64,000 nucleotides of DNA from a virus. The notes under the pieces are model-generated. The model was not told where the DNA came from and did not search any database. It saw only the letters and a list, made by a program, of their open reading frames with translations. The translations under genes and the position numbers were made by a program. The stretch covers positions 1-64,000 of the IMG/VR virus record IMGVR_UViG_3300027782_000044; one strand, written 5' to 3'. Numbering within the stretch: the first letter of the stretch is position 1; each line of letters begins with the position of its first letter. Shown in pieces: positions 18,228 to 35,339 of this stretch.

Positions 18228-21200
18228 TTAGATAGCTCTACACGAAATTGTGGTAGTAATCCCTTCTGAATATTCTAAAGTACACTTAGTTACTAGGTAT
18301 TTAGCGCTAGATTCTGACATCCCCAATATTGGATACTTTATGCTAACAATATCTCCAGCAGATATTAATGGGTTACCGAAAACTGTCATGTCAACAAACC
18401 TACCCTTATTTAAAGAGTTTGATTTAATCCAATTTGCAAGTTTTTCTGCATCTTGTTCATTCTGAATCCATGAAGACTCAAAGATTACAGATTCCTTATT
18501 TTGGGAATCTTCTGATTGGTCCGTCTTATATTCTATAGCAGAGGATCGGCTAATCTTATTTCCAAGTACATAGAAAGTTGTGTAATCGCTATCATGCAAA
18601 ACAACCGAGGTGGATGTGTTGTTTAAAATATAAGTCTCCGCAGAAAATGGCTGGAGCCTTTGATCAAGAACTGTGGCGTAAGGATTTTTGGAAGTTCTAA
18701 ACATAATAGGCAGAGCGGGCCTTTCGTCTGGGTCATAAGCAATTTTTACTTTTCTTATTTCTCTTGCAGTTGTTCCAAACTCAATTAGGGATCCATCTTG
18801 ATCTGCTACGGTGTTTGCATTGTTATAAATTAAATCTCCGTATAACATAGAGATTGTGTCGTCTGCATAAGAGCCAACATGTTTGTATGACGCCACTCTA
18901 TTTCTTTCATTATAAAGAGTTTCATCAATACTCTTCCCGTATAGAAAATCAAAGTAAACCTGGCCTTGACCGCAATGGACTGCTAAATTTTTTGTAACAG
19001 TAAGTGGTGGAATATATTGGCTTGTAGAATCGCTTCCAGCATCAACTGCTGTTAGTTTAAACCCATTAATAAAAACAGTAATTGTATTTTTAACCAATGT
19101 TCCTGATGTAGTTTGAGATTTAACAATCACATCTATATTGTAAGATTGACCTGCATACACTCCAGCCAAAGTTTTTGGAGATGTTTGCTGACCATCTTTT
19201 AAAACAGTAATCTTTCCATTTTGAACTTTTACAATCATTATATCGTTTTCTAAAAGAGCATAGGCTGTAGTACGGACTAGAACGTAGTAACCATTTTGGC
19301 CAGTTGAGTCTAAGCAAAATGCAATACCTCCAACCTGCGATGGGCTTACCAATTGACTATCAAAAAACATTCTAGTTCCACAAGCCATGTACAACGATCC
19401 TGTGTTAATTGTATTAAATGGCTTTAGTAACAGATTAAATGATTTTTTGTCTTTATCTAAACTTGATACCGTTATAAAGCTTTTAGCTATACTGTCAAGT
19501 TTTGAATTTGCTGGTGCTGTTATATATCCTGGAGGTACTGTTTCTTTTGCAATATCTGGAGTTGCCAGCTTAATTGAATAAGATTTAAATTTATTTGCAT
19601 CATTTTCACCTATACCATTAACATAAGAGGTTAAGCTTTTCTTATGATCTTTCTTAGATGTTCCAAGGGCATTTCTTGTTTTAATATTATATTCACCAGT
19701 TGGATAAAAATATTTAGACCCTGGTTTTGCCAAAGCTTCATACTTCCAAAAATCTGATTGGCTTTTCATTAGAACTCTAACTGGTGATCCACCTACTGCT
19801 GGTACATATTGATACCAAAGCCCGTCGTACTCAATAATCTCATCGTTAATTAAAACATAACCACTAAAAGCATCTAACACCTTATCAATTCTTTCTGAAT
19901 TTACTGTATTTGGAATTAGCTTAAACATTGGGCTGCTATCTACAATATCGTCAGCCAGCCTGCCAGCTCCAAGAAACGAATCGGAAGATGTCCAAAGAGG
20001 CTGGCTAGAGGTGCTATTTACTGAAGTAGATGCTGAAGAGTATCTAACGGTAACTTGATTTGCAGAAAATATTTCTCTTGATGACAAGCTGGCGATACTT
20101 GGTGCATAATCAACAACATCTCCGCTCTTAATTTCTTTGTCTGTAAACACCCAACTTGATGGAGTGGTTGCATCATAAATTACATTTCTGCTATAAAAGT
20201 TTAAAATATTATTTTCATCTACAAATGCGTTCATTTGAATATCTCTACATAATTCTTGTAATACTTCCCAAACTGTTTTATCACCGTCACACCACCAATA
20301 AAATAGAGATGGAATTGAATCATCATCAACTTTGCCATCAGTCATTTTTATATTAATATTATAAGTAGAAAAACCGACAGAATCAAGTACTCTTTTTATG
20401 ACTGAAGTTACTGGTGAATCTTGAACTAATAATTGTGGGCACATGGTATCTTGTAATATTTTTGCTGCATCAGTTGCATCAATAGAAGCTTCTCCAAATT
20501 CAGAAAGAGTCCATGAGTTAGTATAAAATACACCCTGAGTTACTTTTTCTAAAGACTCTCCTTCTCCAATATTAAGATATGGCTTTATAATTGCATTTTT
20601 AAATAAATACAGTTTTGTATTATCTATAGACTCTTTTACGTTATACTCCATAATTGATCTAGATGTATCACCATGTTGCCTAAATAAAGATAAGCTTAAA
20701 TAGTTTGCTGTAATTACTCCAACTGGAACAATAGAGTCGCTATCTGCTGTTGTTTCTTTATTGACAGTAAATGATACTATATCTGAATCTAACGATACTA
20801 CCCACCTTGGACTTAATTCAATTACACCTAGTAATTTACCATTCATTCTGTTTGTTGCAGTTAAAGTTATTTTCTTTAAATACTCAGTTGTAGTATATTC
20901 ATCAGGTTCATCTGTTGACCATGCAGTTCCATTATAATATATTACTGCCTCCCCGCTTGAATTAAGCGTAGTGCCAGAAACAGATATTACTGTATTGTCT
21001 TCTTTGACTCCACTTATTGTCCAAGATAATGGGGTGTCGTGATTAGTTTCAAACCTTGCAACAATTTTATTTGCAGGAACTAATTTCACTGTAGTCTTTG
21101 CTTCGTTTGAAAAGTATTCTAAAGAGACACTAATGTTTGTATTTTTAGGAGCAAGCCAGTATTTATACGTCATCTCTGAGCCAGGATAATATAGTCTAGG

Positions 21201-21524
21201 CTTGCCCAAAAAAGCTACATCCCTAGGATTTTCATACAAATCTTGACGTGGTGAGTCTGTTTGTTTTTTAGTTACAGGATCCTGTGTATAAACTAAATAT
21301 TTAATTCCTGGAGCTAATGGTCTAAAAGGTTTATATATTGTATCTATTGGAAACAACTTTTTAAAAGCAGCTGAATATGTATTAACTATATCTGCTGGGG
21401 TAGTTGTTGCTTTTATATATTCAACCATGGAGTTTAAGTTATATTCCATTGTTGCGCTTGCAGAAATTGGTATTGATGACCCCCGCTTAATTAAATTCTT
21501 AGTTGTATCGCTTACGGTTATCAT
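18228..21524 (-). CDS. minor tail protein (hub/central tail-tip-like)
   Basis: 1098 aa, second gene after the TMP; TVWEVLQEL...FVDENNIL and GNPLISAGDIV motifs typical of hub proteins. Confidence 0.75.
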   Translation of the reverse strand: MITVSDTTKNLIKRGSSIPISASATMEYNLNSMVEYIKATTTPADIVNTYSAAFKKLFPIDTIYKPFRPLAPGIKYLVYTQDPVTKKQTDSPRQDLYENPRDVAFLGKPRLYYPGSEMTYKYWLAPKNTNISVSLEYFSNEAKTTVKLVPANKIVARFETNHDTPLSWTISGVKEDNTVISVSGTTLNSSGEAVIYYNGTAWSTDEPDEYTTTEYLKKITLTATNRMNGKLLGVIELSPRWVVSLDSDIVSFTVNKETTADSDSIVPVGVITANYLSLSLFRQHGDTSRSIMEYNVKESIDNTKLYLFKNAIIKPYLNIGEGESLEKVTQGVFYTNSWTLSEFGEASIDATDAAKILQDTMCPQLLVQDSPVTSVIKRVLDSVGFSTYNINIKMTDGKVDDDSIPSLFYWWCDGDKTVWEVLQELCRDIQMNAFVDENNILNFYSRNVIYDATTPSSWVFTDKEIKSGDVVDYAPSIASLSSREIFSANQVTVRYSSASTSVNSTSSQPLWTSSDSFLGAGRLADDIVDSSPMFKLIPNTVNSERIDKVLDAFSGYVLINDEIIEYDGLWYQYVPAVGGSPVRVLMKSQSDFWKYEALAKPGSKYFYPTGEYNIKTRNALGTSKKDHKKSLTSYVNGIGENDANKFKSYSIKLATPDIAKETVPPGYITAPANSKLDSIAKSFITVSSLDKDKKSFNLLLKPFNTINTGSLYMACGTRMFFDSQLVSPSQVGGIAFCLDSTGQNGYYVLVRTTAYALLENDIMIVKVQNGKITVLKDGQQTSPKTLAGVYAGQSYNIDVIVKSQTTSGTLVKNTITVFINGFKLTAVDAGSDSTSQYIPPLTVTKNLAVHCGQGQVYFDFLYGKSIDETLYNERNRVASYKHVGSYADDTISMLYGDLIYNNANTVADQDGSLIEFGTTAREIRKVKIAYDPDERPALPIMFRTSKNPYATVLDQRLQPFSAETYILNNTSTSVVLHDSDYTTFYVLGNKISRSSAIEYKTDQSEDSQNKESVIFESSWIQNEQDAEKLANWIKSNSLNKGRFVDMTVFGNPLISAGDIVSIKYPILGMSESSAKYLVTKCTLEYSEGITTTISCRAI

Positions 21525-22117
21525 ACCTGCTCCATTGATATAGATACGCTCCAGAAGGTCTGCAAGCCTCTTTTAAGGACAGTAAAGTCACATGAGGTAA
21601 ACATTACCGTATAAGTATAATCATCAGCTAAGGTTCCAGCATCAGCAGTTATTAGGGATGGATTAAATACTGTTGGATTTAGTTTTATCCTAAAAGATCC
21701 TCTTCCTGCAGCTGATTCATAAAAATTCTTTATATCTTCTGCACCCCAGCCGCCATCTACTGTTTCATTTCTAAATGATGGCAGCATTTCCCAAGATGCA
21801 CTTATGTTTAGCTTATCAGCAATAAAATATTTTCTTAGAGTTCCATTTGACATTCTTTGGCTAGACTCAATTCTATTTGTAGTTATAGCAAGTGGGTCTC
21901 TATTATGCTCTGTAACTCTTCTAAATTTTAAAACCGCTCTATCCTCGTATGGTATCGGCCAAGTTTTTGTTAGAGCATCATAGGCAGGATAAACATTTCC
22001 TGGTGGAGTAATTGTTTCACCCTTGTAGTTAAAAGTATTGTTTGCAGTATTAATTGCAAATGGGTCAAGTGCTTCAATATATAGCACAGATCCTTTTCCT
22101 AAGTTTTGAAAACTCAT
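21521..22117 (-). CDS. distal-tail-like minor tail protein
   Basis: Immediately follows the TMP; RMSNGTLRKY...WSVSISMEQV. Confidence 0.7.
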   Translation of the reverse strand: MSFQNLGKGSVLYIEALDPFAINTANNTFNYKGETITPPGNVYPAYDALTKTWPIPYEDRAVLKFRRVTEHNRDPLAITTNRIESSQRMSNGTLRKYFIADKLNISASWEMLPSFRNETVDGGWGAEDIKNFYESAAGRGSFRIKLNPTVFNPSLITADAGTLADDYTYTVMFTSCDFTVLKRGLQTFWSVSISMEQV

Positions 22118-25100
22118 TGCCCACCAACCCTTCTATTTACTCCTGCTGCCATTTCCTTTAATCTCATTTCTCTATGTATTTGAGTTGCAACATCTTGTGC
22201 TGTTACATTAGTTCCATTTAATTCTACGTTAATATTATATACTGAACCTGATACAGCCGCCGATGCATTTGGATTAAATGGGTTCATATTGGCTGGGATA
22301 ACAGCTTCATCTTTATGAAGCATTGCCAACATATTTGCAGGAACCATATTAATTCCATTTTCAAATTGAGGTACTCCCAATCTAGAAAATGCAGTGCTTA
22401 TAGAGTTAGTAAGGTTTAATCCAGTGTTGTTTATGTATCCGCCAGCTGCATCACTTGTGTGCCCATAATTATTTTCTGACCAGATGTTTGACCCTGGGCG
22501 TGAATGTGGTGCCCTATTTGCAATCGGTGGGAGATAAGGGTTTTCCCAAGCCCAAGTAGCTGGGACATCGTTGCCTTGTTTCATCAAGCGAAGTAAGTCT
22601 TTGTTATCTATCATTTCTACATAGCTTCCGTGACCAAACGGGTACGAATTGTATGTGCGATTTGGATTTTTTCTCCATGCCATTAATGACTCGTAATGCG
22701 CTTGATCTGCTGCTTTTATAGCTAGCCTCTGCTTTTCCATACGAGCTGCATGTTGTGCATCATAGGCTAACTGAGCTTCGCTTGGTTTTGGAACAGAATA
22801 TGGTGTAGGAGTATAAGGTTTTCCAGGTATTAATTTTGAACGCAATGCTGCCAGCCTGCTATTTGCAGCATTAGATACCAGGGAGGCTAAAGTAACTTTG
22901 CCAGGGGATATGAATGGCATGTTAGGCATAATTCCTCCAATTGCTTCGGAGTAACCTACACCATCTGATGTTCTTTGCTTAGAATGCTTTATTCTAGTAA
23001 TAGATGCGCCGTATTCATTCATAAATCTTGCTATGCCAAGCTTTCGGTGGTTGTGGTTTACTCCTATCAATCTAATTGTTCCAGTTATAGAATCCCAAGT
23101 TATATTGCCTGCAACTGAGCCGTCTGGAGCATACACTTCGATATTGTGCATTGGGCCAACCCACTCGTTTCCGTACATATTTTCTTGGATTCCTGAAATT
23201 CCGCTTTTAAAAGTTGACTCTGGTGGGTACTGATCTATTTGAGCTGGCTTAAATTTAAATGAATAATCTCCTTTAGGTGTTGGAAATGTTCCAGTATGCT
23301 CTGTAAGATTTCTAGCTTCTTTCAAAAGATCTTCATATTTAACAGTACCTAATTTTTCAATTGGCGTAAACTTGCCAGCCTTTGCAAGCTTCTCTGCTTT
23401 AATCATTGCTGATTCATATGGGGATAATGCAGATGGCCCTAGTAAAGTTTCTTTAATCTTGGCATTTACTTTTATAGGAGTAAAAGCATCTACTGCAATT
23501 TTTGACGTGATTGGCTTAGTGATAGGCCTTGTAAGTTTTGATGCCAGCCCAAGTCCTGGCAATACTCCAAGAACGTCTGCAGCTACACCCAGATTCTGAC
23601 TTCCAAAAATTTCTGGGCTTGTTTTATTTTTTAAATTGAATGCTGAAGTGTATCCAGTTAACATTTGTGCTGTTTGTAATGCCGCTAAATCTGTTTCAGA
23701 TTGATCTATTTTAGGAGCTGATATATTTTTATTAAATGCCTTACTTGCTCCAAATCCAAACATGCCATTTGTAATTGATGCAAACACGTTTGCTGGATTA
23801 AATCTGCTAAAGAAGTTTCCATGCTTATGTCCTACTGGACCGCCTTTATGGTATCCCTTGGCTTTATCTAGGTTATAACTAGTAATATAGTCTTTGAATT
23901 TTTTATATTGTACAGAATTTGGGAGCTCTTCTGGTTTAGATACATAAGCTGCTGGATTAAATTCTTGAAGTCCTTCTTGCCACATCTGGTAAATAGTTTT
24001 TGTTTTTTCAGGCATATTTGGAGAATTATCTATAAAGCCTTTTAGGAATTGTGGATTAAGTCTTAAAGGAAGAGCTAAAGCATTTTGCTCAAACATTCTA
24101 AAAGTTTTAAAGTATCCTCTTAAATTATCTGTTCCTAGGCCTGGACCGTATGTATTGCCAATTTTTGAAGCCAGCATTTTATCTTTTAGGCTCTTGCTAT
24201 TTACAAAGTTTAGGTATGCTTTAAATGTATTTTCGTCAGCAAAGGCTTCAGCTGCTCCGTTACTCCAAGCAATGCTATCAATGTCTTTTTGGCCAATTGC
24301 ATAATCTTCCCAGGTTGCAAAACCAAGACCCTTTTGCTGTTTTTCTGCATTTACATAGACAGATTCGTATCTATCTGCTAAATCATATTTACCAGATTTG
24401 CGTAACATTTCAAGTGTTCTTTTAAATGTGTTGTGCGTTTCAAAATCAAAATGATGCATTGTTTCATGCACTGCAGTTTGACCACTTGTTTTATGATTTG
24501 AATTAAGAAGAATATGCGGAAGCAAATTTTCATAATTAGAAGATTTATCTGCAAACCTAGGGACATACTGCCCTGCAACGTTCCATGGTAATTTTTCTTC
24601 TTTTATTGCTGGTAAAGATACATCTCCAAGCACATCTGATAAAAACTTTTGCATGTTCTTAGCACTTATATTTTTGCCCTCATACTTAGCAGCATTAAAA
24701 CTAGATAAAGGACCAGTTGGTGTTAGATTAATATCTGGTGTAACTAATTTAGATTTTGCAGCAAGACCTGGTAATTTAGTTATCTTGCTAAGCCCTCCAA
24801 TAAGTGGAAGTACGCCCAATACGTCTGCTGCGGTTCCTAGCTTCTGGCTTCCAGCAATTTCTGGGCTTGTGCTATTTTTTAAATTAAAAGCAGATGTATA
24901 TCCAGAAAGAAGCTGTGCTGTTTGAAGAAGCGCTCTATCTTTTTCTTGCTGAGTCATAGTAGACTGAACATTAACATTCTGGTTTACAGCCTTAGATGCA
25001 CCAAAGCTAAACATGCCAGAAAGCATTGAGGATATTGAATTTACTGGATTAAATCTGCTAAACCAATTACCGTTTTTATTTTTATTGCCTACTGGGCCGC

Positions 25101-28100
25101 CATTAGCAAAGGTTAGCCATGAACCAGCGCCATAAACACCGTTTCCAATTCCGCTCATAGAAGCACCAGAGCCTGCGTAACGCATTGGATCCTTGTCAAG
25201 ACCCATTCCTGGTCCACTATACTTAACAGGCTGCTCGGCTATCTGATGCCAGTAATCTGAACGATTAGCTATTTTTCCGTCAAACCTAAGACCTGGTATC
25301 TCTGTTCCGCCCCAGATATCTTTACCCTTAGCAGGACCGTATCTTAGCGCTCCCCATCTTTGAGTATAAGGGCTTCCTGATGGGCTTCCATCACTCCAGT
25401 AATCTGGCATATCTTCAGGATATGACTTCCATTTGAATAGAGACCCTGGTAAATTTCTTCCGTGTCTATGACCAACTGGCCCTCCCTTATGCAACCTTTG
25501 TGCGTTTAATGCATCAAGTGTCTCTACGCCGTACTTTGCAACAGAAGATGCTTTAATTACATATTCACCATCTGAAAGCATTGCTGGAATAGAATCTGAT
25601 GTTCCAGTTCCTGGGCCTGTAACCTTACCGCCGATGGCATATGTTGGACTAGTATTTTTTACAAACTTAACAGTTCCATCATTTAAAACTATGAATTCTT
25701 TTAGAATTCCATTAGACTCTTTTAAAGTAAATTGCTGTCCTGCTTTATATCCCTTTTCTTTTGCAAACTTATTGATCTTTCCTTGTTGGGACGGTAGCAA
25801 TGTGTTTATAAGCATATCCATACCGAATACATCCTTTGATTTTCCGCCATATACTGTTTTAGAGGTACCTTTTAGTGCAGCAACAATTTCTTCAGTCATT
25901 GTTTTTATCGAGTAGCCTTTACCTCCAGTAATCTGAGTAGCCATACTTGATACCAAAGCAACATCTCTATCAAGGATCTTCAATATATCTTTATTTAGAG
26001 TGGTAATTGTTGTTGAGGTTACACCACTGGTTGTAGAGGCAGGTGAACCAGGAGATTCAACATAAACTTTCTTTATTGTTCCATCTTTATTAAAGTACTG
26101 GGCAAAAGATTCTCTTATGGCTTTTGCAGTTTCACTTGATCCAGTTCCTGCTGCGCCTACTTTTTTAAGCAGGTCGCTTAGCTTACCAACAAGCTCTCCC
26201 TCCGCTTTTCTTTTTGCTTCGCTTTCTGGCATCATGCTATTTGTTATTCTTAAAGCGGTTATCTCATCGTAAGTTGCTTTAAATCCTTTAACTACATCCA
26301 TAACTGCAGCAGCACTTGTTGCATTATCTTGTCTGTTTTGGAAAGCAATTGCTTTTTTATCAGCTGCAGCTTGCTTTGCATCTATTTTCTTTTGCTCAAT
26401 AGCTTTTAGTCTAGCTGCTTCATCTTGTATTGCTTTTTCAGCTAAGTCTGCCTGTCTATTAGATGTAAGCTGGTCAATGTTTATTCTTGCTCTGGCTGCA
26501 CCAGAAACATCTCCACGAGCAACAGCGTCTGCATACTCTATTTGAAGTTTTTGCAATTCTAATGCATAGTTAGATGCGTCTTGAGTTGCTCTTAAAGATT
26601 CTAATTTTTTATTTTTTTCATCTTCAATAAGGCTAATTTTTTTAGCAATTAATTTTATTTCTTCTTGAATGTTTCTTTGTGAAACAGCAGCTGCTTTTTG
26701 TGAAGCAGCAGAGGTAGCTAAAATTGATTCTTGTAGTCTTTTTAATACTTTACCAGTTGCTCCATATGTATTTTCACTATTGCCAGCAGCAGTTAAATCA
26801 GCAATTCCTGATCCAATTGCTGCAGTAAATCCAGCTAGCTTTATAGCTAAATCAGCATCAATACTCTTTAAGTCAATACTGATTCCAGAAGTAAACAGTT
26901 TAGTTTTTGCTATAATTGACTTTAATGTATCAAACTCATTTATAATCTTTTCTAGCTCTGGGCTCATCTCTTTCAAAGTCTGGTAAGTATCTTTGCCAAT
27001 TGGAATATTAAATTCAGGTATATTCTTTTCTGTGCTTGCCAACATTGTTTGATATGCTTCAAACTCATCAATAAGATCTCCTTGAGCATTTTTTGTTCCA
27101 ATGAGCGCTTGAGTGCCTGCGTTAACTATGCCAATCATGCTTTCAAAACCAGATACCACCGCCTTTTTCTGTGCGTTAGCATCTGCAAAAGTTTGACCAT
27201 AGCTATCAAATAGGTTCGTTGAGAAACTAATTGGATTAAGCAGATCGCTTGGTTGAAAGTCAATATTGTCTTTCCACAAAGAAAATGATGATTTATTTCC
27301 ATTTATGGTTTTTACTAAGTTGCCAACAGCAAATTCTGCCGCAGAAGATTTGTCTTCAATTGCGCCGAAGCCTTGATCGGCTAGCAACTTATAAGCCTGG
27401 GAGGCCTTTTTACTATTAGCAATAGCTCCATAAATCATCGAGTTTGCTTGCTCTACGCTTAATCCTCCTGCAACATATTGTGCTTTTTGATTATTTATTA
27501 ATCTTTGAAGTTCTCCTGTGCTTGAAGTTCTATTAATTGATTCAATTAAGTCTTTAAGAACCTTGCCCTCTTCTTTTGCTTTTTTCATTTCATCTACAGA
27601 CTGAGGTATGCCAGGCATACCGATTGAGTTATTTTTTGATCCCTGAGCAGCAGCATTTGCTAATTTTTGCTTTTCAATATAGTCTGAAAGGTACTGATTA
27701 AGATTAAAGTATTTAATTCCAGCTTGTTCGGCACCATCTGCAGTAATAGATAAACCCATTGCAGCATCTTGCTGAGCATTGTTGTATTTCTTCCATACAT
27801 CAAGCCCTGTCAAAACAATTGCTAGAACTGTACCAAGGGCTTTAAACTTTGTAACAAAGTTACTGGCAGAAGCGCCTACTGCAGAAATTGCATCTTTAAC
27901 ACTTTTAAAAGCTTTAATTGATGCCACTACAGAAGTTGTGGTTGACTTTACTGCGCTTCCCATTGTTTTCCATGGCAACATAGGAATTATAGTGGTGGCA
28001 CCCATAAGAGCTAATCCAGCCGTCATCCCGCTCATACCCAAAACTTTTTCCTGTTGCATTAATGACATGGCGCCCATAGAGCCAGCCATTCCGATACCCA

Positions 28101-31100
28101 TTTGGGCACCCATGCCCATTCCGCCTCTTACCCTAGTGTCAATTCCTGCGGCTTTTGCAGCCTTTGTGTCATAGATCTTGCCACTTGCATCCATGAACTC
28201 TCTGCGTCTATAGCCATAAGTTCCTACTTTACGACTCTTGACTCCATCTTCTCCAGAGTCTTTCCAAGCGCCAACTGCTCCAACGTTTCCTACACCAGCG
28301 CCTGGGCCAGACATATACATAGGCATCATTTGTCCTGGATATGCGGCAGACAGCCTCTTAGACTGCTCTCTTAAAATTCCTTCTCTAATAGTTCTTGTAG
28401 TTGTTCTTGCAGAGTTTATTCGTTCTTTTGCATAATCTGCATAAGCTGAACTCAGATATTTTCCTGAATTCATAATTCCGTATCTTAATCCTACTGTGCC
28501 TAATTTAATTGAGTCAGTTAAAGATTTAAAAGATTTAGTTATTCCTGCTGGAAGCTGACCAATTTGTGAAAGTCTTAAGGTGTTTATAGCCTGCTGAGAT
28601 TGTCCAGTTTGCGATGCACCAAATGCGTTTCCAAAAACTCCAGCTCCGCCAACATAAGGAATTTGTTGTACTTGCATTTGAGGATTACCCGAAGCTGTAT
28701 ATCCAGATCTAGATACAGGTGTTACTGATCGCTCAGCCTTTAATCTTTCCTGCTGAGCTCTTTTTGCTGGATTTCCTGATACTCTAGATCCATCTTTTTT
28801 ACGTCCATAAGCATATCTACTTCTTTGAACAGGGCCTCCACCAACTGGGCCTCCAGCATTAAGATATTTTGGATTAACGTGCATTGCATGATACTTAGAC
28901 CAATCAACATCCATTCCTTCTTCAAATCTCTTAAGCAATGCATCATAAGGCTTTCTATCTTTTTTAGGAAGAGACTTGATATATGACTTTAATTGTGGAT
29001 ATGCGGCTTCCATCTTTTCTTTAATCTTATCGCCATATTCTTTTGCAGTCATCTTTGCAATAATAGGAGCGGTATCACGAGCAAAATCTTTTCTAGATCC
29101 ACCCTTGACTTGCAACAAGTTTGCCAGCGCCATCTCTTCCATAGAAGGCATAGTTTTTGCAAAATCATCATTCATAGATGCTTTAGCTAGGACCCCACCA
29201 TTACCAACATCTGACAATCTTCTTCCGTGAACATTTGATCTAGACAAATCTTTATTTGCAAGAATCATAGAAGCAATAAATTGATCCAGAACTTCATCTT
29301 GACTAAACTTTCCAGGCACTGATGTATTTGGATTAATGAAGCCTTCATCGTAATCTGACTCTGCTCCAAGAAATCTAGACTTGCCAGTTGGGTCCAGTGG
29401 ATTGCGAATTGATTTTGCAACTTGAACTGGAGTTTCAAGACCTAGGATTCTTCCAATTTCTGTTCCACGCATTTCTGCTGTTAAGCTAGGTTCATTTGGA
29501 ACCGCTTTAAAGAACACCTTTTTCTTTTCTTCGTTTTGATAAACCCCAGCAACTCCAGGAACTGGGAAACTTCTTCCTGTGCTTGGTGTTAGCAAATGAC
29601 TATACGATGCTGGAATATATCCAGCAGGCGTTACAGCTGACATTTCACGAGCTTGCTGCAAAATCTTAAGTTGTTGTGCTGGTGCTAATAGTCTTAGAGC
29701 TGGTGATACAAATCCATAATTTTTTCTGCTTCTTGATATATGACCACCTGGAATCATTCCGCCAGAATTCCATGCTCCCGATACAAGAACTGGTCTTGGA
29801 GGTCTTCCAGCCAATATCCATTTTGATCTTTTTACTGCTGCTTCTAAAAGCATGCCTAAAGAATTTTTTTGATCTTTATTTGCTCTTACTACTCTGCCAG
29901 ATTCCCAGTCAGCCTTGCTTTTAATTTTCCCATCATCTTGTAGTGCTGCATATATATCGTCTACGCTTGCAAACTTGTCCAAACCTGTTTTCTTTAATGC
30001 TATGGCAAGGTTTTCTTTTGCATCTGCTGAACTTAAGTTTAAAACATCTCTTGATAACCCTATAGTTTCAAGTGTGCTCATTACATTATTTATACCAGCA
30101 GGTATTACAGCACCAACCCCCATATAACCACTGGTTGTATACCCAACTAAATCTTTACGTGCAAAATGTGCTTTGTCGTGCAGTCCACCAATAGATGGGG
30201 ACCCATCAGATGCATTTAAAAATGTTGTTGGAGCAATTGCTGCTATAAGATCATGCACTCCAGCAAATTTTTTATTTGCTAGCATTGCTTTTCTAACGTC
30301 ATTTAGTTGCCAGTTTAAAGCTTTGCTACTACTTCTTGGGTATACCGTTTTCCCATCTTTTTCGAAGCCCTCTGCATCTTTAACACGGGGAACCATGCCA
30401 TCTCTTTCTAGTCCCTGGACCTGCTTAATTCTTATTTTTACAAAATTTTCATCGCTTCCGCCAGCTTGAGCCTTAGCCTTATCAAAATTGCTTGTTGCAA
30501 TATTTATAGCTTTATCAATTGGCAACTTATTGTGATAAGATAATTCAGCGGCGTCAAGCATGATCATTCTTACTCTTATATCATCTTCATATCTTGGGTT
30601 ATTAATAAACTTTAGATACTCTCTATACTGTCTCTTAAAGTTTTGTTCTTTCATTCTAGCTTGAGCAGATTTAGACATCTTTTTACCGTATGAATTTACG
30701 CCCTTCATTATCTGCCCGCCAAAACTATATCCGTTATTGGCTGCATCCACTGCTGCATATAGATCAGGCATTCTTTGTATCTGAGGACCAAAGACTGTTT
30801 CCCGTGGAGTAAGTGCTGCTGTTATGCTTCCGCCATCGTTTAAGTAGGTAGATGGAGCCATTGCAACTAATGCAGCATTTGCTGGATCCATTGAGGCTTG
30901 CTGATTTAAAACATATCCGCCTAGAGGAACGCTTCCCAATCTATCATCATAACCAATTGAAGAAGGTCCAGAAACCATAGTCTTGCTTGGACCAAATGAT
31001 TCTATGTCTCCACCGATGTTAAACTTAGGCAGCCTTGTTGTCTGAATACTATATGGTGCTCCAAAAGTTCTAACACCACGTAGTCTTCCAAATTCTTCCA

Positions 31101-33717
31101 TGACAGAAGCATTTGTTTTTTTCTTATAAAGATCTCTTAATGTAAACTGACCATTTGCATCAACAACTGGTTGGTCCATCATAGGAGCTCTTGTTAAATC
31201 AATTCTTCTTCCTCGACCAGCGGCATATGCTGTTACTGCAGAGCCCATATCTGCTTCTATCTGTGCATTAAGTGCAAGTATTCTTGCCTTAGCTTGCTCA
31301 ACTGTTATTTCTGCATTTCTCATTTGTTGCACAATAGATGCTGATTGCGTTGCGGCACTATCTGCAAATCTTTTAGTTATAGGCAGAATATCATCAAATG
31401 TGTCTAGCAGCTCTGCGCTTACAGTTCCACCCATAGCAATTGTCTTTTTGAGCATTGCAACTTCTTGTTCTGTCTGCATTCCTAGTGTTGCCATTAATGC
31501 ATGGAACTTAGCTGCTTCTCCTGGAACAATTCCTGTTGATATTCCCTTTACGCTTGTTAGTCCTTCAATGTTTGGAAGCCTATCGTGCATGTACATTTGA
31601 GGAGTTCTTGATATGCCTCTATTAACTGGGATAGCTCCTGGGACTCCGCCAAATATAGTTGCAGGATTATTTAGATCTCTTGGTCTAATATGAGACATTG
31701 CTCTAGTGTTAGGATCTCCAACATATGGATCGTTAGGGTCTACAACTCTTCTTCCGCCAACCATCACTGGGTTACCAGCAACAGTGCTAACTCCTCCATT
31801 TACTGGAACTGCATTTTTCATTGATGCCGCTTGTAGACTTTGATAATCTAAAACAAGCTTTTGTAACGCATTGTGAAGAACTTGAGCTGCTGCTGCATCT
31901 GAATAAAATGCATTTTCAACCATAAGTGCTGCTTTTTCAGCAGCAATAATTTCTGGAGTAAGCATCTTCCAGCCATTGGCCTTCATAAAGAATGCTCTTA
32001 GTTGAACAACTCCCTTAGTTATATATCCAAAGAAGTTTGCAAGCACACCAGTTAACATAATAAGAGGACCAACCAGTGCTGTAAATCCAGCTAAAAATGT
32101 TAATCCCTTTTTAATTGGGTCAGGCAACTTAGTAAAGAAATCTAAAATCTTTGTAGCTGCGCTTATAAGCTTGGTAGCAACTCCAAGAAACTCTTCTCCA
32201 ACATCTGCAAGCTCTGCTTTAAGGCCTTCTATAGCCCTCTTGTATTTACCAGATGCGGACTCTGTAACCATTTTTAATTCTCGGCTAGCAACTGCTGCTA
32301 AATCTGAAGTGCTTGCTTTCATTAAATCTAAAACTTGAAGAGTCTGGCTACCCTGCTTTCCTAAGTTGTTAAGCAATGCGCTCATTCTTGCAAATTGGAA
32401 CTTACCAAACATTTGCTCCATTGCTCTTGCTTTACTTAATGGATCTAAACCATCAAGAGCTTTCTGCAAATCCATAAGCAAGCCAGTTGTATTTCCAGTA
32501 TTTTTTGCAACCATTCCCATTACATCTATGCCAAAATCTGACATCATGCCAACTGTTTGTTTTGTTGGGTTAATAAGTGATGCTAGACCAGACTTTAAAG
32601 CATTGGCGCCTTCTGATGCGCTAATTCCACCTTCTCTCATTGCAGTTAAATAGAGAGCTAAATCTTTAACACTTCCTCCAAGCTGTTGAATTACTGGTCC
32701 AGCTTTTGGGATAGCCTCTACTAGGTCATTAAGAGTTGTTGAAGTTTGGTTTTCAACTGCGTTGAGAAAGTTAATTGATTCAGTTAGTTGTTGAGTATTT
32801 TGCTTAAAAGCTGTCTGAATAGAAAGAGTTGCTTTCATTGCATCTTGTCTATCTACTTCACCGAGTATTGCTAGTCTTGTTGTTTCTGCAATTGATCCAA
32901 GGAGCTCGTCACCAGTTTGTCCTGTTGCCGCGATATCAGCACCTAGCGCAATAGTTTCTTTAAAAGATGCACCCATTGTCTTAGATAAAACTTTTGCTGT
33001 TTCAACAACTTCTTCTCTAATTGCTCTTAAATCTGAAGCGGATGTAGCTGCAAGACCGCCATAAACTTTTGTTAATCTTACAAGCTCTGCGTCTGCTTCT
33101 CTAAATGCTTTTCCAGCTGCCGCTCCAAACATAGTTAGAGGAACTGTGAGTCCTACGGTAAGCTGTCTACCTGCCCACTGAGTATTTTTACCCCAGTTAA
33201 TTAAAGACCCTGCTCCTTCAGATAATGCACGATTCATAATCTGCATTTCCATGCGAGCTAATTTTCCGCTATTTGCTATTGCATCTAAGCCTCTAGGAAT
33301 CATTACATTGTATTGCATTAAACCTTGAGCATTTCTGCCCAGAGGTTGCAGTACTGAATTTTGAAGCATTACCTGTTCTTTGGCAAGCTCCCTGATCATA
33401 CCCTTTTGAGTTGTAGAGTGCTCTCTAAATGTTTGGAAATAGTTCTTAAGCTTTAGTCTACCAGCATCTAAGTTTTTACCAAATTTATCTACATCAGAAT
33501 TAAGGTTTACAAAGTGGCTGGAGAACTGTCCGCTTCCAGTTAAGGTATCTCTGAATAGATTATTTGCTAATTTTGTTGAAGAAGATATTGCTTTGTTTGA
33601 TGCAAGGAGTTCTCTTTGTAGTTGCTGGAGACTAGCACTAGCCCTGTGTACTTCAGACACAAGGCTAGACAAGTCGGCTTTGGCGACTATACTGGTTACA
33701 ATTTGTTCGTCAGCCAT
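22114..33717 (-). CDS. tape measure protein (3867 aa) with appended enzymatic cassettes
   Basis: Follows the tail chaperones; N-terminal TP901-type TMP core (GANALKSGLASLINPT); hydrophobic segments; GPGTGTSDSIPAMLSDGEYV motif; extra domains described in findings. Confidence 0.93.
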   Translation of the reverse strand: MADEQIVTSIVAKADLSSLVSEVHRASASLQQLQRELLASNKAISSSTKLANNLFRDTLTGSGQFSSHFVNLNSDVDKFGKNLDAGRLKLKNYFQTFREHSTTQKGMIRELAKEQVMLQNSVLQPLGRNAQGLMQYNVMIPRGLDAIANSGKLARMEMQIMNRALSEGAGSLINWGKNTQWAGRQLTVGLTVPLTMFGAAAGKAFREADAELVRLTKVYGGLAATSASDLRAIREEVVETAKVLSKTMGASFKETIALGADIAATGQTGDELLGSIAETTRLAILGEVDRQDAMKATLSIQTAFKQNTQQLTESINFLNAVENQTSTTLNDLVEAIPKAGPVIQQLGGSVKDLALYLTAMREGGISASEGANALKSGLASLINPTKQTVGMMSDFGIDVMGMVAKNTGNTTGLLMDLQKALDGLDPLSKARAMEQMFGKFQFARMSALLNNLGKQGSQTLQVLDLMKASTSDLAAVASRELKMVTESASGKYKRAIEGLKAELADVGEEFLGVATKLISAATKILDFFTKLPDPIKKGLTFLAGFTALVGPLIMLTGVLANFFGYITKGVVQLRAFFMKANGWKMLTPEIIAAEKAALMVENAFYSDAAAAQVLHNALQKLVLDYQSLQAASMKNAVPVNGGVSTVAGNPVMVGGRRVVDPNDPYVGDPNTRAMSHIRPRDLNNPATIFGGVPGAIPVNRGISRTPQMYMHDRLPNIEGLTSVKGISTGIVPGEAAKFHALMATLGMQTEQEVAMLKKTIAMGGTVSAELLDTFDDILPITKRFADSAATQSASIVQQMRNAEITVEQAKARILALNAQIEADMGSAVTAYAAGRGRRIDLTRAPMMDQPVVDANGQFTLRDLYKKKTNASVMEEFGRLRGVRTFGAPYSIQTTRLPKFNIGGDIESFGPSKTMVSGPSSIGYDDRLGSVPLGGYVLNQQASMDPANAALVAMAPSTYLNDGGSITAALTPRETVFGPQIQRMPDLYAAVDAANNGYSFGGQIMKGVNSYGKKMSKSAQARMKEQNFKRQYREYLKFINNPRYEDDIRVRMIMLDAAELSYHNKLPIDKAINIATSNFDKAKAQAGGSDENFVKIRIKQVQGLERDGMVPRVKDAEGFEKDGKTVYPRSSSKALNWQLNDVRKAMLANKKFAGVHDLIAAIAPTTFLNASDGSPSIGGLHDKAHFARKDLVGYTTSGYMGVGAVIPAGINNVMSTLETIGLSRDVLNLSSADAKENLAIALKKTGLDKFASVDDIYAALQDDGKIKSKADWESGRVVRANKDQKNSLGMLLEAAVKRSKWILAGRPPRPVLVSGAWNSGGMIPGGHISRSRKNYGFVSPALRLLAPAQQLKILQQAREMSAVTPAGYIPASYSHLLTPSTGRSFPVPGVAGVYQNEEKKKVFFKAVPNEPSLTAEMRGTEIGRILGLETPVQVAKSIRNPLDPTGKSRFLGAESDYDEGFINPNTSVPGKFSQDEVLDQFIASMILANKDLSRSNVHGRRLSDVGNGGVLAKASMNDDFAKTMPSMEEMALANLLQVKGGSRKDFARDTAPIIAKMTAKEYGDKIKEKMEAAYPQLKSYIKSLPKKDRKPYDALLKRFEEGMDVDWSKYHAMHVNPKYLNAGGPVGGGPVQRSRYAYGRKKDGSRVSGNPAKRAQQERLKAERSVTPVSRSGYTASGNPQMQVQQIPYVGGAGVFGNAFGASQTGQSQQAINTLRLSQIGQLPAGITKSFKSLTDSIKLGTVGLRYGIMNSGKYLSSAYADYAKERINSARTTTRTIREGILREQSKRLSAAYPGQMMPMYMSGPGAGVGNVGAVGAWKDSGEDGVKSRKVGTYGYRRREFMDASGKIYDTKAAKAAGIDTRVRGGMGMGAQMGIGMAGSMGAMSLMQQEKVLGMSGMTAGLALMGATTIIPMLPWKTMGSAVKSTTTSVVASIKAFKSVKDAISAVGASASNFVTKFKALGTVLAIVLTGLDVWKKYNNAQQDAAMGLSITADGAEQAGIKYFNLNQYLSDYIEKQKLANAAAQGSKNNSIGMPGIPQSVDEMKKAKEEGKVLKDLIESINRTSSTGELQRLINNQKAQYVAGGLSVEQANSMIYGAIANSKKASQAYKLLADQGFGAIEDKSSAAEFAVGNLVKTINGNKSSFSLWKDNIDFQPSDLLNPISFSTNLFDSYGQTFADANAQKKAVVSGFESMIGIVNAGTQALIGTKNAQGDLIDEFEAYQTMLASTEKNIPEFNIPIGKDTYQTLKEMSPELEKIINEFDTLKSIIAKTKLFTSGISIDLKSIDADLAIKLAGFTAAIGSGIADLTAAGNSENTYGATGKVLKRLQESILATSAASQKAAAVSQRNIQEEIKLIAKKISLIEDEKNKKLESLRATQDASNYALELQKLQIEYADAVARGDVSGAARARINIDQLTSNRQADLAEKAIQDEAARLKAIEQKKIDAKQAAADKKAIAFQNRQDNATSAAAVMDVVKGFKATYDEITALRITNSMMPESEAKRKAEGELVGKLSDLLKKVGAAGTGSSETAKAIRESFAQYFNKDGTIKKVYVESPGSPASTTSGVTSTTITTLNKDILKILDRDVALVSSMATQITGGKGYSIKTMTEEIVAALKGTSKTVYGGKSKDVFGMDMLINTLLPSQQGKINKFAKEKGYKAGQQFTLKESNGILKEFIVLNDGTVKFVKNTSPTYAIGGKVTGPGTGTSDSIPAMLSDGEYVIKASSVAKYGVETLDALNAQRLHKGGPVGHRHGRNLPGSLFKWKSYPEDMPDYWSDGSPSGSPYTQRWGALRYGPAKGKDIWGGTEIPGLRFDGKIANRSDYWHQIAEQPVKYSGPGMGLDKDPMRYAGSGASMSGIGNGVYGAGSWLTFANGGPVGNKNKNGNWFSRFNPVNSISSMLSGMFSFGASKAVNQNVNVQSTMTQQEKDRALLQTAQLLSGYTSAFNLKNSTSPEIAGSQKLGTAADVLGVLPLIGGLSKITKLPGLAAKSKLVTPDINLTPTGPLSSFNAAKYEGKNISAKNMQKFLSDVLGDVSLPAIKEEKLPWNVAGQYVPRFADKSSNYENLLPHILLNSNHKTSGQTAVHETMHHFDFETHNTFKRTLEMLRKSGKYDLADRYESVYVNAEKQQKGLGFATWEDYAIGQKDIDSIAWSNGAAEAFADENTFKAYLNFVNSKSLKDKMLASKIGNTYGPGLGTDNLRGYFKTFRMFEQNALALPLRLNPQFLKGFIDNSPNMPEKTKTIYQMWQEGLQEFNPAAYVSKPEELPNSVQYKKFKDYITSYNLDKAKGYHKGGPVGHKHGNFFSRFNPANVFASITNGMFGFGASKAFNKNISAPKIDQSETDLAALQTAQMLTGYTSAFNLKNKTSPEIFGSQNLGVAADVLGVLPGLGLASKLTRPITKPITSKIAVDAFTPIKVNAKIKETLLGPSALSPYESAMIKAEKLAKAGKFTPIEKLGTVKYEDLLKEARNLTEHTGTFPTPKGDYSFKFKPAQIDQYPPESTFKSGISGIQENMYGNEWVGPMHNIEVYAPDGSVAGNITWDSITGTIRLIGVNHNHRKLGIARFMNEYGASITRIKHSKQRTSDGVGYSEAIGGIMPNMPFISPGKVTLASLVSNAANSRLAALRSKLIPGKPYTPTPYSVPKPSEAQLAYDAQHAARMEKQRLAIKAADQAHYESLMAWRKNPNRTYNSYPFGHGSYVEMIDNKDLLRLMKQGNDVPATWAWENPYLPPIANRAPHSRPGSNIWSENNYGHTSDAAGGYINNTGLNLTNSISTAFSRLGVPQFENGINMVPANMLAMLHKDEAVIPANMNPFNPNASAAVSGSVYNINVELNGTNVTAQDVATQIHREMRLKEMAAGVNRRVGGQ
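23540..25105 (-). repeat. two diverged copies of a ~90-100-aa module inside the TMP (about 23540-23855 and 24800-25105)
   Basis: GGPVG...FSRFNP.N...GMF.FGASKA.N.N...LQTAQ.L.GYTSAFNLKN.TSPEI.GSQ.LG.AADVLGVLP..G occurs twice. Confidence 0.9.
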
Positions 33718-34491: not shown

Positions 34492-35265
34492 TTAAGCTGA
34501 TAGAACACGGTCAATAATTTTACCGTACTCTGAACCAATGTGGCTTGCTTCACCTGATGGGAGAAGACGGAATGTCACTGGGAATGTTGTTGCTGCTGTA
34601 CGAGCCAAAGAGAACTGTGACTGCTCAACAGACAAAACACGACGTGCATAGTATACACGCTCTGTTGTTATATTAGCGCCTGAATCATCTCTTGTTGGAG
34701 CTTGTCCAATTGCAATTAGTTGACGCTCTGTTGGAGCTGCACCTAGTGCGCCTGCTTCCAAGCCTAGTACGTCAACGTCAGAACCCTTTACTAGCGTTGA
34801 TCCCTTTTGTCCAAATACTGCTAGGATATTTTCTAGAGTACCTTCTGCCATTTCTGTTGAAATTTGAACCTGCATAGCAGACTTGAAAAGCTTAGCTGTA
34901 TCGAGCAACTGATCAACAGTTACTGAATCGAATGTTGGCTGGTAGCTGATCTGAAGACCGTTATTTGTGTAACCTACGTTACGATATGCTCCACCCTTTT
35001 TTGGGTTAGATGCTGTAAACGGAGCTGTTGCTTGTGTAGTAGCTGTGTCTACAGATACCTTATTTAATGTATCTGTGTAAGACTCTCCTGCTAAGAATGC
35101 TGGTACGTAACGGTTTTTATCTGCAACGAAAGCATTTTCTGGGGTTGCCCCTGCTTCCATGCTATTATCATAACCATTTACGGTTGAATCTTCTACTGAC
35201 AAAAATAGTGGTGATGCTCCAACAAGAATGTTGCGGGCGTCTCCTGTATTTTGATATGTTGCCAT
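34492..35265 (-). CDS. major tail (tube) protein
   Basis: VGYTNNGLQISYQPTF..V.VDQ tube signature; flanked by its own promoter and terminator; start MATYQ at 35265 behind GGAGG. Confidence 0.88.
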   Translation of the reverse strand: MATYQNTGDARNILVGASPLFLSVEDSTVNGYDNSMEAGATPENAFVADKNRYVPAFLAGESYTDTLNKVSVDTATTQATAPFTASNPKKGGAYRNVGYTNNGLQISYQPTFDSVTVDQLLDTAKLFKSAMQVQISTEMAEGTLENILAVFGQKGSTLVKGSDVDVLGLEAGALGAAPTERQLIAIGQAPTRDDSGANITTERVYYARRVLSVEQSQFSLARTAATTFPVTFRLLPSGEASHIGSEYGKIIDRVLSA

Positions 35266-35339
35266 AATTGTATTGCCTCCTGATTTCATATGAAATTAAT
35301 ATATATATTTTGGCTGGCTAGGCCCTTTCCTCTGTTCTA

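Follow-up and report, generated by a model that had tools for sequence, protein, structure and literature searches.

The stretch of DNA analyzed here, the first 64,000 nucleotides of the IMG/VR virus record IMGVR_UViG_3300027782_000044 (hereafter the window; the source record is 116.5 kb long with a completeness rating of 97%), carries on its minus strand one uninterrupted open frame (22114..33717) encoding a tape measure protein (TMP) of 3867 amino acids (P0001). On balance, and with some reserve, we favor the reading that this is a siphophage TMP in which exchangeable modules, each fenced by a short recurring peptide that we call the joint, interrupt the ruler. The protein would belong to an uncultured siphophage of ~116 kb, and its two ruler parts (residues 1-898 and 1619-2692) would be interrupted by two module arrays, the first with helical domain D and atypical kinase E, the second with spacer H, HExxH domain I and mini-GNAT J.

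The identification of the gene product as a TMP of the TP901-1 / PhageMin_Tail type, already made in the original prediction from the DNA alone, is supported by sequence comparison. PF10145, the sole Pfam family found in the whole protein, matches residues 240-438 (window 32404-33000) with an E-value of 3.2e-26 and 92.9 bits against a cut-off of 33.2, and 12 TMP families of the PHROG collection span residues ~15-860 (best 3.8e-118). One further PHROG, phrog_23013, gives an additional match at residues 2697-2744. Nine separate segments of the TMP compared with Pfam at E up to 10 returned nothing over any cut-off, and a megablast search with the entire gene found no match among 50,697 phage records.

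Ten copies of the joint had been proposed, and all ten peptides are present, each with its first codon within ~10 nucleotides of the predicted position. From the N terminus, all on the minus strand, they are FNIGGDI (residue 899, 31003..31023), LNDGGSI (959, 30823..30843), YSFGGQI (997, 30709..30729), WNSGGMI (1316, 29752..29772), LNAGGPV (1619, 28843..28863), YAIGGKV (2693, first codon at window 25641), LHKGGPV (2742, 25474..25494), FANGGPV (2870, 25090..25110), YHKGGPV (3289, 23833..23853) and AAGGYI (3757, first codon at window 22449), the last being a looser match than the other nine. Additional half-copies lie at residues 933, 1324 and 1627. The pattern [FYWLA]xxGGx[VI] occurs nine times, against 0.93 +/- 0.95 expected from 2000 residue shuffles (maximum 7; none of the 2000 reaches nine), and the shorter GGx[VI] occurs 15 times against 3.5 +/- 1.8 expected (maximum 11). 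Bare GG shows no enrichment in the TMP relative to the shuffles (34 versus 31.8 expected), so that the context around GG, rather than GG itself, is the special part. Among 833 unique GG contexts taken from 46 TMPs of relatives, described below, position -4 is G, K or R in 43%, position -3 is F or Y in 29%, position -2 is N or A in 32% and the second residue past GG is V or I in 45%, giving a rough consensus of [G/K/R]-[F/Y]-[N/A]-x-G-G-x-[V/I]; K or R occupies position -4 in two of the nine strict copies of the window TMP.

To compare relatives, we searched IMG/VR with the TMP core (residues 1-660), which found 173 relatives, and fetched 80 of these 173 loci (L numbers below). TMP fragments under 900 residues were left out of the comparison of homology breaks, as were L072 and L081, where the contig ends within the TMP match (residues 1-496 and 1-511) and another part of the locus holds the longest frame. 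Excluding sequences under 2000 residues and duplicates left 34 distinct complete TMPs, or 46 with 12 cut ones. The TMPs of the relatives have a core of 64-99% identity in common; over residues 1-850 identity to the window TMP ranges from 60 to 99%, and the complete TMPs of relatives are 2119 to 3937 residues long, with four loci still open at 3993 residues, where the fetched DNA ends.

Alignment of these relatives shows that the motif marks the edges of modules that they gain, drop and swap. In BLASTP comparisons run relative by relative, homology to the window TMP stops at residue 902 (in L077), at 2748-2750 (in many loci) and at 2876-2878 (in L039, L008 and L023), and restarts at 3287-3289 and at 3757; these points of break and restart are the motif positions, and with LHKGGPV at 2742 the variable C-terminal array begins. 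When each of the 34 complete TMPs was compared with all the others, the internal ends of high-scoring segment pairs (HSPs) formed 937 clusters, which are not independent events, with 144 within 3 residues of a motif (35.1 expected) and 235 within 10 residues (69.0 expected).

The clearest single exchange involves module D (residues 997-1315, 29773..30729 on the minus strand), which has YSFGGQI at its left edge and WNSGGMI at its right. L066 is 89-100% identical to the window TMP in every segment but D, where identity is 24%: the two proteins agree through ..GYSFGGQIM, collapse just past that joint, and restart at GGMIPGG. With L028, L049 and L027 the window TMP shares its D allele at 91-92% identity and its core at only 90%, and taken together these values indicate that D has been exchanged between lineages as a unit. 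At least two deeply divergent allele classes of D exist, ~24% identical to each other within flanks that are 95-100% identical (window versus L066, L004, L005 and L006). At the DNA level, identity between the window and L066 stops and restarts within the ~20 nucleotides that code for the two joints, as might also be expected if the motif were a DNA recombination signal whose microhomology drives the shuffling. We regard that explanation as hardly credible. The ten joints use differing Gly and flanking codons and have at most nine identical nucleotides in common, which places their conservation on the peptide level; the peptide is also kept in very distant TMPs, including those of lambda and cultured actinophages; and selection for functional recombinants would in any event put the surviving breakpoints at the edges of domains. 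Judged by its codons, the joint is a domain joint conserved as protein and not a recombination signal. The expectation that related TMPs would exchange cassettes at the motif was thus borne out by the homology breaks, the excess of HSP ends and the L066 swap, and the original description of the motif as a cassette junction holds for where the swaps fall and fails as a statement about a recombination signal in the DNA.

Splitting the TMPs at the motif gave 262 segments of at least 60 residues in 48 families. Past segment F, the second ruler-like part, the 34 complete TMPs display 16 C-terminal architectures built from 32 segment families, and 11 of the 34 have a short C-terminal end only; short TMPs that lack modules keep three or four tandem joints near the C terminus. 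Arrays of relatives include CHAP domains with or without LysM (L059, L028, L015, L010, L017, L049 and L027) and a PF18013 tail lysozyme (L069). The phages of this clade recombine by gaining, losing or replacing whole modules between joints, relatives carrying cell-wall hydrolases (CHAP-LysM or tail lysozyme) or none where the window TMP has its own array. The fast turnover suggests selection by the diversity of host envelopes or defenses. The shortest relative, L077 (2119 residues), lacks the entire first array (window residues 902-1672) and keeps a GG..IPALLEPGESV module.

A second lineage of giant TMPs, with N terminus MADVQSNI.., C terminus ..KNNKTNKVGG and lengths up to 4435 residues, has single modules in common with this clade. 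Its members are P0003, P0006, P0013, P0015, P0016, P0018, P0021 and P0023; P0003 and P0006 carry the HExxH core at 58-60% identity, again fenced by joints, and the others carry the leader described below or the J module. These matches point to module transfer between TMP lineages.

The second module of the first array, E (residues 1316-1618, 28864..29772 on the minus strand), bears out the kinase-like motif of the original prediction in both its modeled structure and its conserved residues. The AlphaFold model that covers E has a confidence (pLDDT) of 70. Foldseek placed CtkA, PI4KIIalpha, Fam20/Golgi casein kinase and HipA as its best matches (E from 2e-3). VIA, which is independent of Foldseek, listed 50 entries for model residues 370-622 (protein residues 1366-1618) and all 50 are kinases, with Z-scores of 9.6-5.1; the best were PI4KIIalpha (Z 9.6 over 212 residues, root-mean-square deviation 4.9), CotH (9.4), MavQ (9.2) and CtkA (8.8). 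In a 25-sequence alignment K1404, E1415, D1490, N1495 and D1503 are invariant and G1505 is present in at least 90%, filling the roles of the strand-3 Lys, the helix-C Glu, the catalytic D..N pair and the Mg-binding DxG. The predicted fold and the invariant catalytic residues together show E to be an atypical kinase-like domain. At E up to 0.05, none of the 25 sequences in the D+E alignment matched a Pfam kinase family or any other meaningful family; the leads in Atlas were PI3_PI4_kinase, HipA_2 and Act-Frag_cataly, all below 0.9. The fold search with the same model (model 1) yielded a list taken up by kinase matches and no assigned fold for D.

The C-terminal array opens with module H (residues 2742-2869, 25111..25494 on the minus strand), a conserved spacer family of ~130 residues (F4, 18 segments). 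Its family sequence, ..DIWGGTEIPGL.F.GK....SDYWHQ.AEQP..GPGMG.DKDP.RYAGSGASM.GIGNG.YG, opens many C-terminal arrays.

Modules I and J, which follow, share a leader of ~110 residues, duplicated at 65% identity ahead of both: ..NWFSRFNP..LQTAQ.LSGYTSAFNLKN.TSPEI..ADVLGVLP..GG... Copy 1 occupies residues 2870-2989 (window 24751-25110) and copy 2 lies at window 23527-23847, and AlphaFold leaves the leader unstructured. A search of the whole 116.5-kb record matched it at these two places only, both inside the TMP, and found no spare cassettes. The leader also stands ahead of unrelated sequences in the giant TMPs P0010-P0014, P0016 and P0017.

Module I (residues 2870-3288, 23854..25110 on the minus strand) contains an HExxH core (residues 3004-3300, 23818-24708, also minus strand) with HETMH at window 24454-24468 and AEAFADE at residue 3156. 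H3084, E3085 and H3088 are invariant in all seven homologues, and AEAFA[DE]E, which may supply a downstream Glu as metal ligand, is found in the six close ones. In Atlas the core scored at best 0.87, with unnamed clusters, and gave a weak lead to LPD23, one of the curated domains of polyvalent proteins (0.86, 18% of members). The peptidase-like reading of the original prediction is only partly supported: it keeps its invariant HExxH and AEAFA[DE]E and finds no Pfam, PDB-profile or fold match. If I were a protease, it might be the enzyme that cuts the polyprotein at the joints, and a processing role has been proposed for the zincin domains of polyvalent proteins by Iyer et al. 2017 (in the part of PMC5512222 used here). 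The invariance of HExxH in the seven homologues would fit, but HExxH is absent from 28 of the 34 complete TMPs, of which 27 retain 6-14 joints, and this rules out the HExxH module as a general enzyme of processing; with the core also lacking fold or PDB-profile support, we consider this role highly improbable.

Module J (residues 3289-3756, 22450..23853 on the minus strand) contains a mini-GNAT core (residues 3463-3609, 22891-23331, minus strand) followed by a helical part (residues 3647-3728). A HMMER search with residues 2870-3756 against 1.84 billion representatives gave 41 matches at E up to 1e-3, mostly proteins of 2000-4400 residues. Small free-standing homologues (111-164 residues) align to residues 3491-3607 at 28-38% identity, and 5 of the 10 small proteins scanned passed the Pfam cut-off for Acetyltransf_1 (P0032, P0034, P0035, P0039 and P0041); the J segment of the window itself had no Pfam GNAT match at E up to 10. 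Foldseek on the J core returned GNATs as top matches (E from 1.4e-2), and among the 50 entries listed by VIA for model residues ~594-740, 42 are named acetyl- or acyl-transferases, with middling Z-scores of 7.4-5.2. Motif A of GNATs, which binds acetyl-CoA, reads Q/R-x-x-G-x-G/A, and RKLGIA at residue 3558 of J fits it. The predicted fold shows the J core to be mini-GNAT-like, so that the GNAT-like motif noticed originally is upheld by the fold matches and by the Pfam matches of its free-standing homologues. P0032, P0034, P0039 and P0041 form a very small GNAT-like family with the pattern ..W...G.I..I.V...H.R.G.AT.M......HS.DRT..G..W...VGG. One protein, P0026 (3303 residues), contains seven stretches matching this family, which is there repeated inside giant proteins without GG joints.

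The joint at residue 2693 opens a longer conserved module, GG..GPGTGTSDSIPAMLSDGEYV...YG..LDALN, which in the window TMP reads YAIGGKV and then GPGTGTSDSIPAMLSDGEYVIKASSVAKYG..LDALN (residues 2693-2741, 25495..25641 on the minus strand). It matches the TMPs of mycobacteriophage Douge (PDB 8zdo, two copies) and of 8rk3, and it is the sole part of residues 2673-3867 to match any of the 50,697 phage records; 151 of the 172 records matched are phages of Gordonia, Mycobacterium or Rhodococcus. In the TMP of Aegeus, joints lie at residues 993, 1332 and 1384, the first two flanking an NlpC/P60 domain, and the TMP of BigShaq has three joints. A hidden Markov model (HMM) built from 49 modules collected by local alignment scored 10.6 bits on residues 750-779 of lambda gpH, where none of 500 shuffles exceeded 3.7. 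By these alignments, the joint is the same element that opens the widespread GG..GPGTGTSDSIPA.LS.GE.V module found in the TMPs of actinophages and in lambda gpH.

According to the part of PMC12617516 used here, T5 and lambda are the only phages whose TMPs are known to be cut. T5 pb2 is cut after R1127, between a hydrophobic stretch and a muralytic metallopeptidase (PMC10038345, in the part used here). The cut site (slash) reads ..VPR/AEGGMMYPG.., and across its 1219 residues pb2 has just one other xxxGGx[VILM] site. Lambda gpH is reported to lose a ~14-kDa piece 'from the glycine-rich region', through an enzyme and at a site that are both given as unknown (PMC12617516, same part). Its glycine-rich region contains AIGGAV (residue 707), FATGGFT (733) and YATGGYV (778), and a cut at residues 710-720 was computed to yield pieces of 78 and 14 kDa. 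The T5 cut and the lambda module are leads on cleavage, not proof of it. By analogy with these two proteins, at least some joints of the window TMP may be cut during tail maturation, freeing modules from the ruler, an idea we put forward tentatively. The larger proposal, which we think unlikely, is that [F/Y]-x-x-G-G-x-[V/I] would be a general maturation-cleavage signal of siphophage TMPs, lying behind the cuts in both lambda gpH and T5 pb2, and that this clade would use about ten of them to make an injected polyprotein that releases cytoplasm-acting enzymes (a new kinase family and a mini-GNAT) ahead of the DNA, with the module set reshuffled between near-identical phages.

It is also possible, though in our judgment rather doubtful, that the joint is never cut and instead forms a tight turn with hydrophobic flanks that serves for packing the TMP trimer in the tube, for chaperone binding or as a hinge, leaving the modules to function, if they do, tethered to an intact TMP. 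The conserved aromatic and V/I positions, which go beyond the need of a simple linker, would suit such a structural role, as would the three or four tandem joints retained by the C terminus of short TMPs that have no modules. The record of cut TMPs is confined to T5 and lambda in the source named above, and the T5 cut site has no detectable homology to the module. Yet the two TMPs known to be cut both have a GG joint at the cut or next to it, and for all five of the joints covered by the two AlphaFold models pLDDT stays below 50 in the surrounding stretch, which separates confident domains and is not ordered structure. Because the alignments behind the models are shallow, the low pLDDT is weak evidence for disorder. 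With the same five joints, the original statement that the motif brackets globular segments stands for the folded parts.

In the reading that we favor, then, joints would fence each module within stretches left unstructured by the models, and the modules would travel unfolded in the tail lumen. The TMP would leave the tail before the DNA, bringing the modules to the host envelope and cytoplasm. Because a kinase fold requires ATP and a GNAT fold acetyl-CoA, E and J would act inside the cell. A narrower view holds that the modules are only tools for breaching the envelope or setting host range outside the cytoplasm, as with T5 pb2C and the hydrolase motifs of mycobacteriophage TMPs, and not effectors on host physiology or defense. 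The CHAP (with or without LysM) and tail lysozyme arrays of relatives and the NlpC/P60 domain between two joints of Aegeus speak for it, and the metallopeptidase motif of T5 pb2C is muralytic (PMC10038345, in the part used here), so that module I could be a wall peptidase. As an account of the whole array it is improbable: E retains all ATP/Mg catalytic residues, the GNAT core retains the R-x-x-G-x-A acetyl-CoA motif, ATP and acetyl-CoA exist only inside cells, and Pfam searches of the segments at E up to 10 revealed no recognizable wall hydrolase in the array of this phage.

Several observations weigh against the reading of a joint-fenced, delivered set of modules. Homology to relatives also breaks away from motifs, at residues 1019, 1656-1724, 2802 and 3010-3018 (BLASTP), and 702 of the 937 HSP-end clusters lie more than 10 residues from any motif, many of them in divergent helical parts. 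L077 lacks any strict motif. In L008, L051, L009 and L010, family F11 seemed to take the place of the kinase, but alignment identified it as a divergent kinase that an additional motif divides in two, and this case of exchange was withdrawn as an artefact of the splitting. D and H have no assigned fold. The I core had no Pfam match at E up to 10; a profile search against PDB sequences gave best rows at chance level (E 0.67 and 1.3); and in the fold search with model 2 the GNAT domain took up the list of matches, which gave no support for a zincin fold. That model is poor overall (pLDDT 55.7), with residues 3414-3603 confident. BLASTP gave no alignment between the T5 pb2 C terminus and the window module, the module HMM did not match at the pb2 cut site, and the basic residue in T5 sits one position off the K/R of the present motif. 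The lumen of a tail is about 4 nm wide, and folded domains of 250-300 residues in three copies would be too big for it, making unfolded storage an unproven requirement. Finally, cleavage, packaging and delivery of the modules are argued by analogy.

TMPs are rulers and channel formers, sometimes with one wall-degrading domain, and those of mycobacteriophages carry hydrolase motifs. T5 pb2 and lambda gpH resemble the window TMP in gene position, in a PF10145-type core and in an enzymatic domain placed C-terminal to the ruler; lambda gpH has the same GG module, and the cut in T5 pb2 falls between ruler and enzyme (PMC10038345, in the part used here). Known TMPs with embedded enzymes combine a single small wall-degrading domain with a single cut, whereas the window TMP has about ten joints and five modules, two of them with folds that use cytoplasmic cofactors, and its content turns over between near-identical phages. 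Polyvalent proteins offer another parallel, being giant chains of kinase, GNAT, zincin and lysozyme domains presumed to enter the host with DNA (PMC5512222, in the part used here); the window TMP likewise combines a kinase-like fold, a GNAT fold and HExxH in one polypeptide. Unlike it, polyvalent proteins are described in that part of the paper as being for the most part packaged in the head or exported through type IV secretion systems; the word 'tape' has no occurrence in the main text, and the portion used here mentions no repeated fencing motif (PMC5512222). The window TMP contains no Pfam LPD family at E up to 1 for the whole protein or up to 10 for its segments.

Effectors of the Sle1 type (Nagakubo et al. 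2026, PMC13277306, in the part used here) are alike in having a TMP-like helical N terminus and an exchangeable C-terminal domain and in being ejected from a tail-like tube, but they are the cargo of intracellular actinobacterial contractile particles, with one functional domain and a partner, Sle2. The window TMP, by contrast, would be the ruler of an infectious siphophage, with module arrays and a fencing motif. Polymorphic toxins such as CdiA and Rhs combine a conserved delivery part with variable C-terminal cassettes set off by a short conserved peptide. The duplicated leader of ~110 residues ahead of two different modules recalls them, but the window TMP has several modules in series and not one at the tip. 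A search of main texts in PMC open-access and bioRxiv found no published account of the joint motif, and none of a phage TMP that carries kinase or GNAT modules.

The remaining parts of the protein frame the two arrays. The TMP core (residues 1-898, 31024..33717) includes a hydrophobic segment at residues 537-567 (window 32017-32109). Segment F (residues 1619-2692, 25642..28863) contains a Gly/Met-rich stretch, a hydrophobic stretch at residues 1954-1972 (window 27802-27858) and a long charged region read here as helical. The C-terminal segment K (residues 3757-3867, 22117..22449), which opens with AAGGYI and is kept in most relatives, is presumably the tail-tip docking end, to judge from Douge, T5 and lambda. 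All three lie on the minus strand. The TMP of the window starts with ATG; in several relatives (6 of 12 checked; L008-L013 and others) the start codon is GTG, directly after TTA. Downstream of the gene are a minor tail protein (18228-21524; phrog_10359, 2.6e-81) and a tail protein (17003-17869). Upstream, in the chaperone position, are two small open reading frames matching PHROGs without assigned function, and an immunoglobulin (Ig)-domain protein lies at 34492-35289.

In this phage, the ruler of the tail doubles as a rack for interchangeable enzymes, two of which are sensible only inside the host cell, and the tail probably carries ready-made enzymes into the host. If this is true, pre-made proteins would be delivered by way of the tail lumen as well as from the phage head. 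As for the fencing peptide, it is a concrete candidate for the processing site of lambda gpH and T5 pb2, and the joints, as natural insertion points, could serve for loading cargo into laboratory phage tails.

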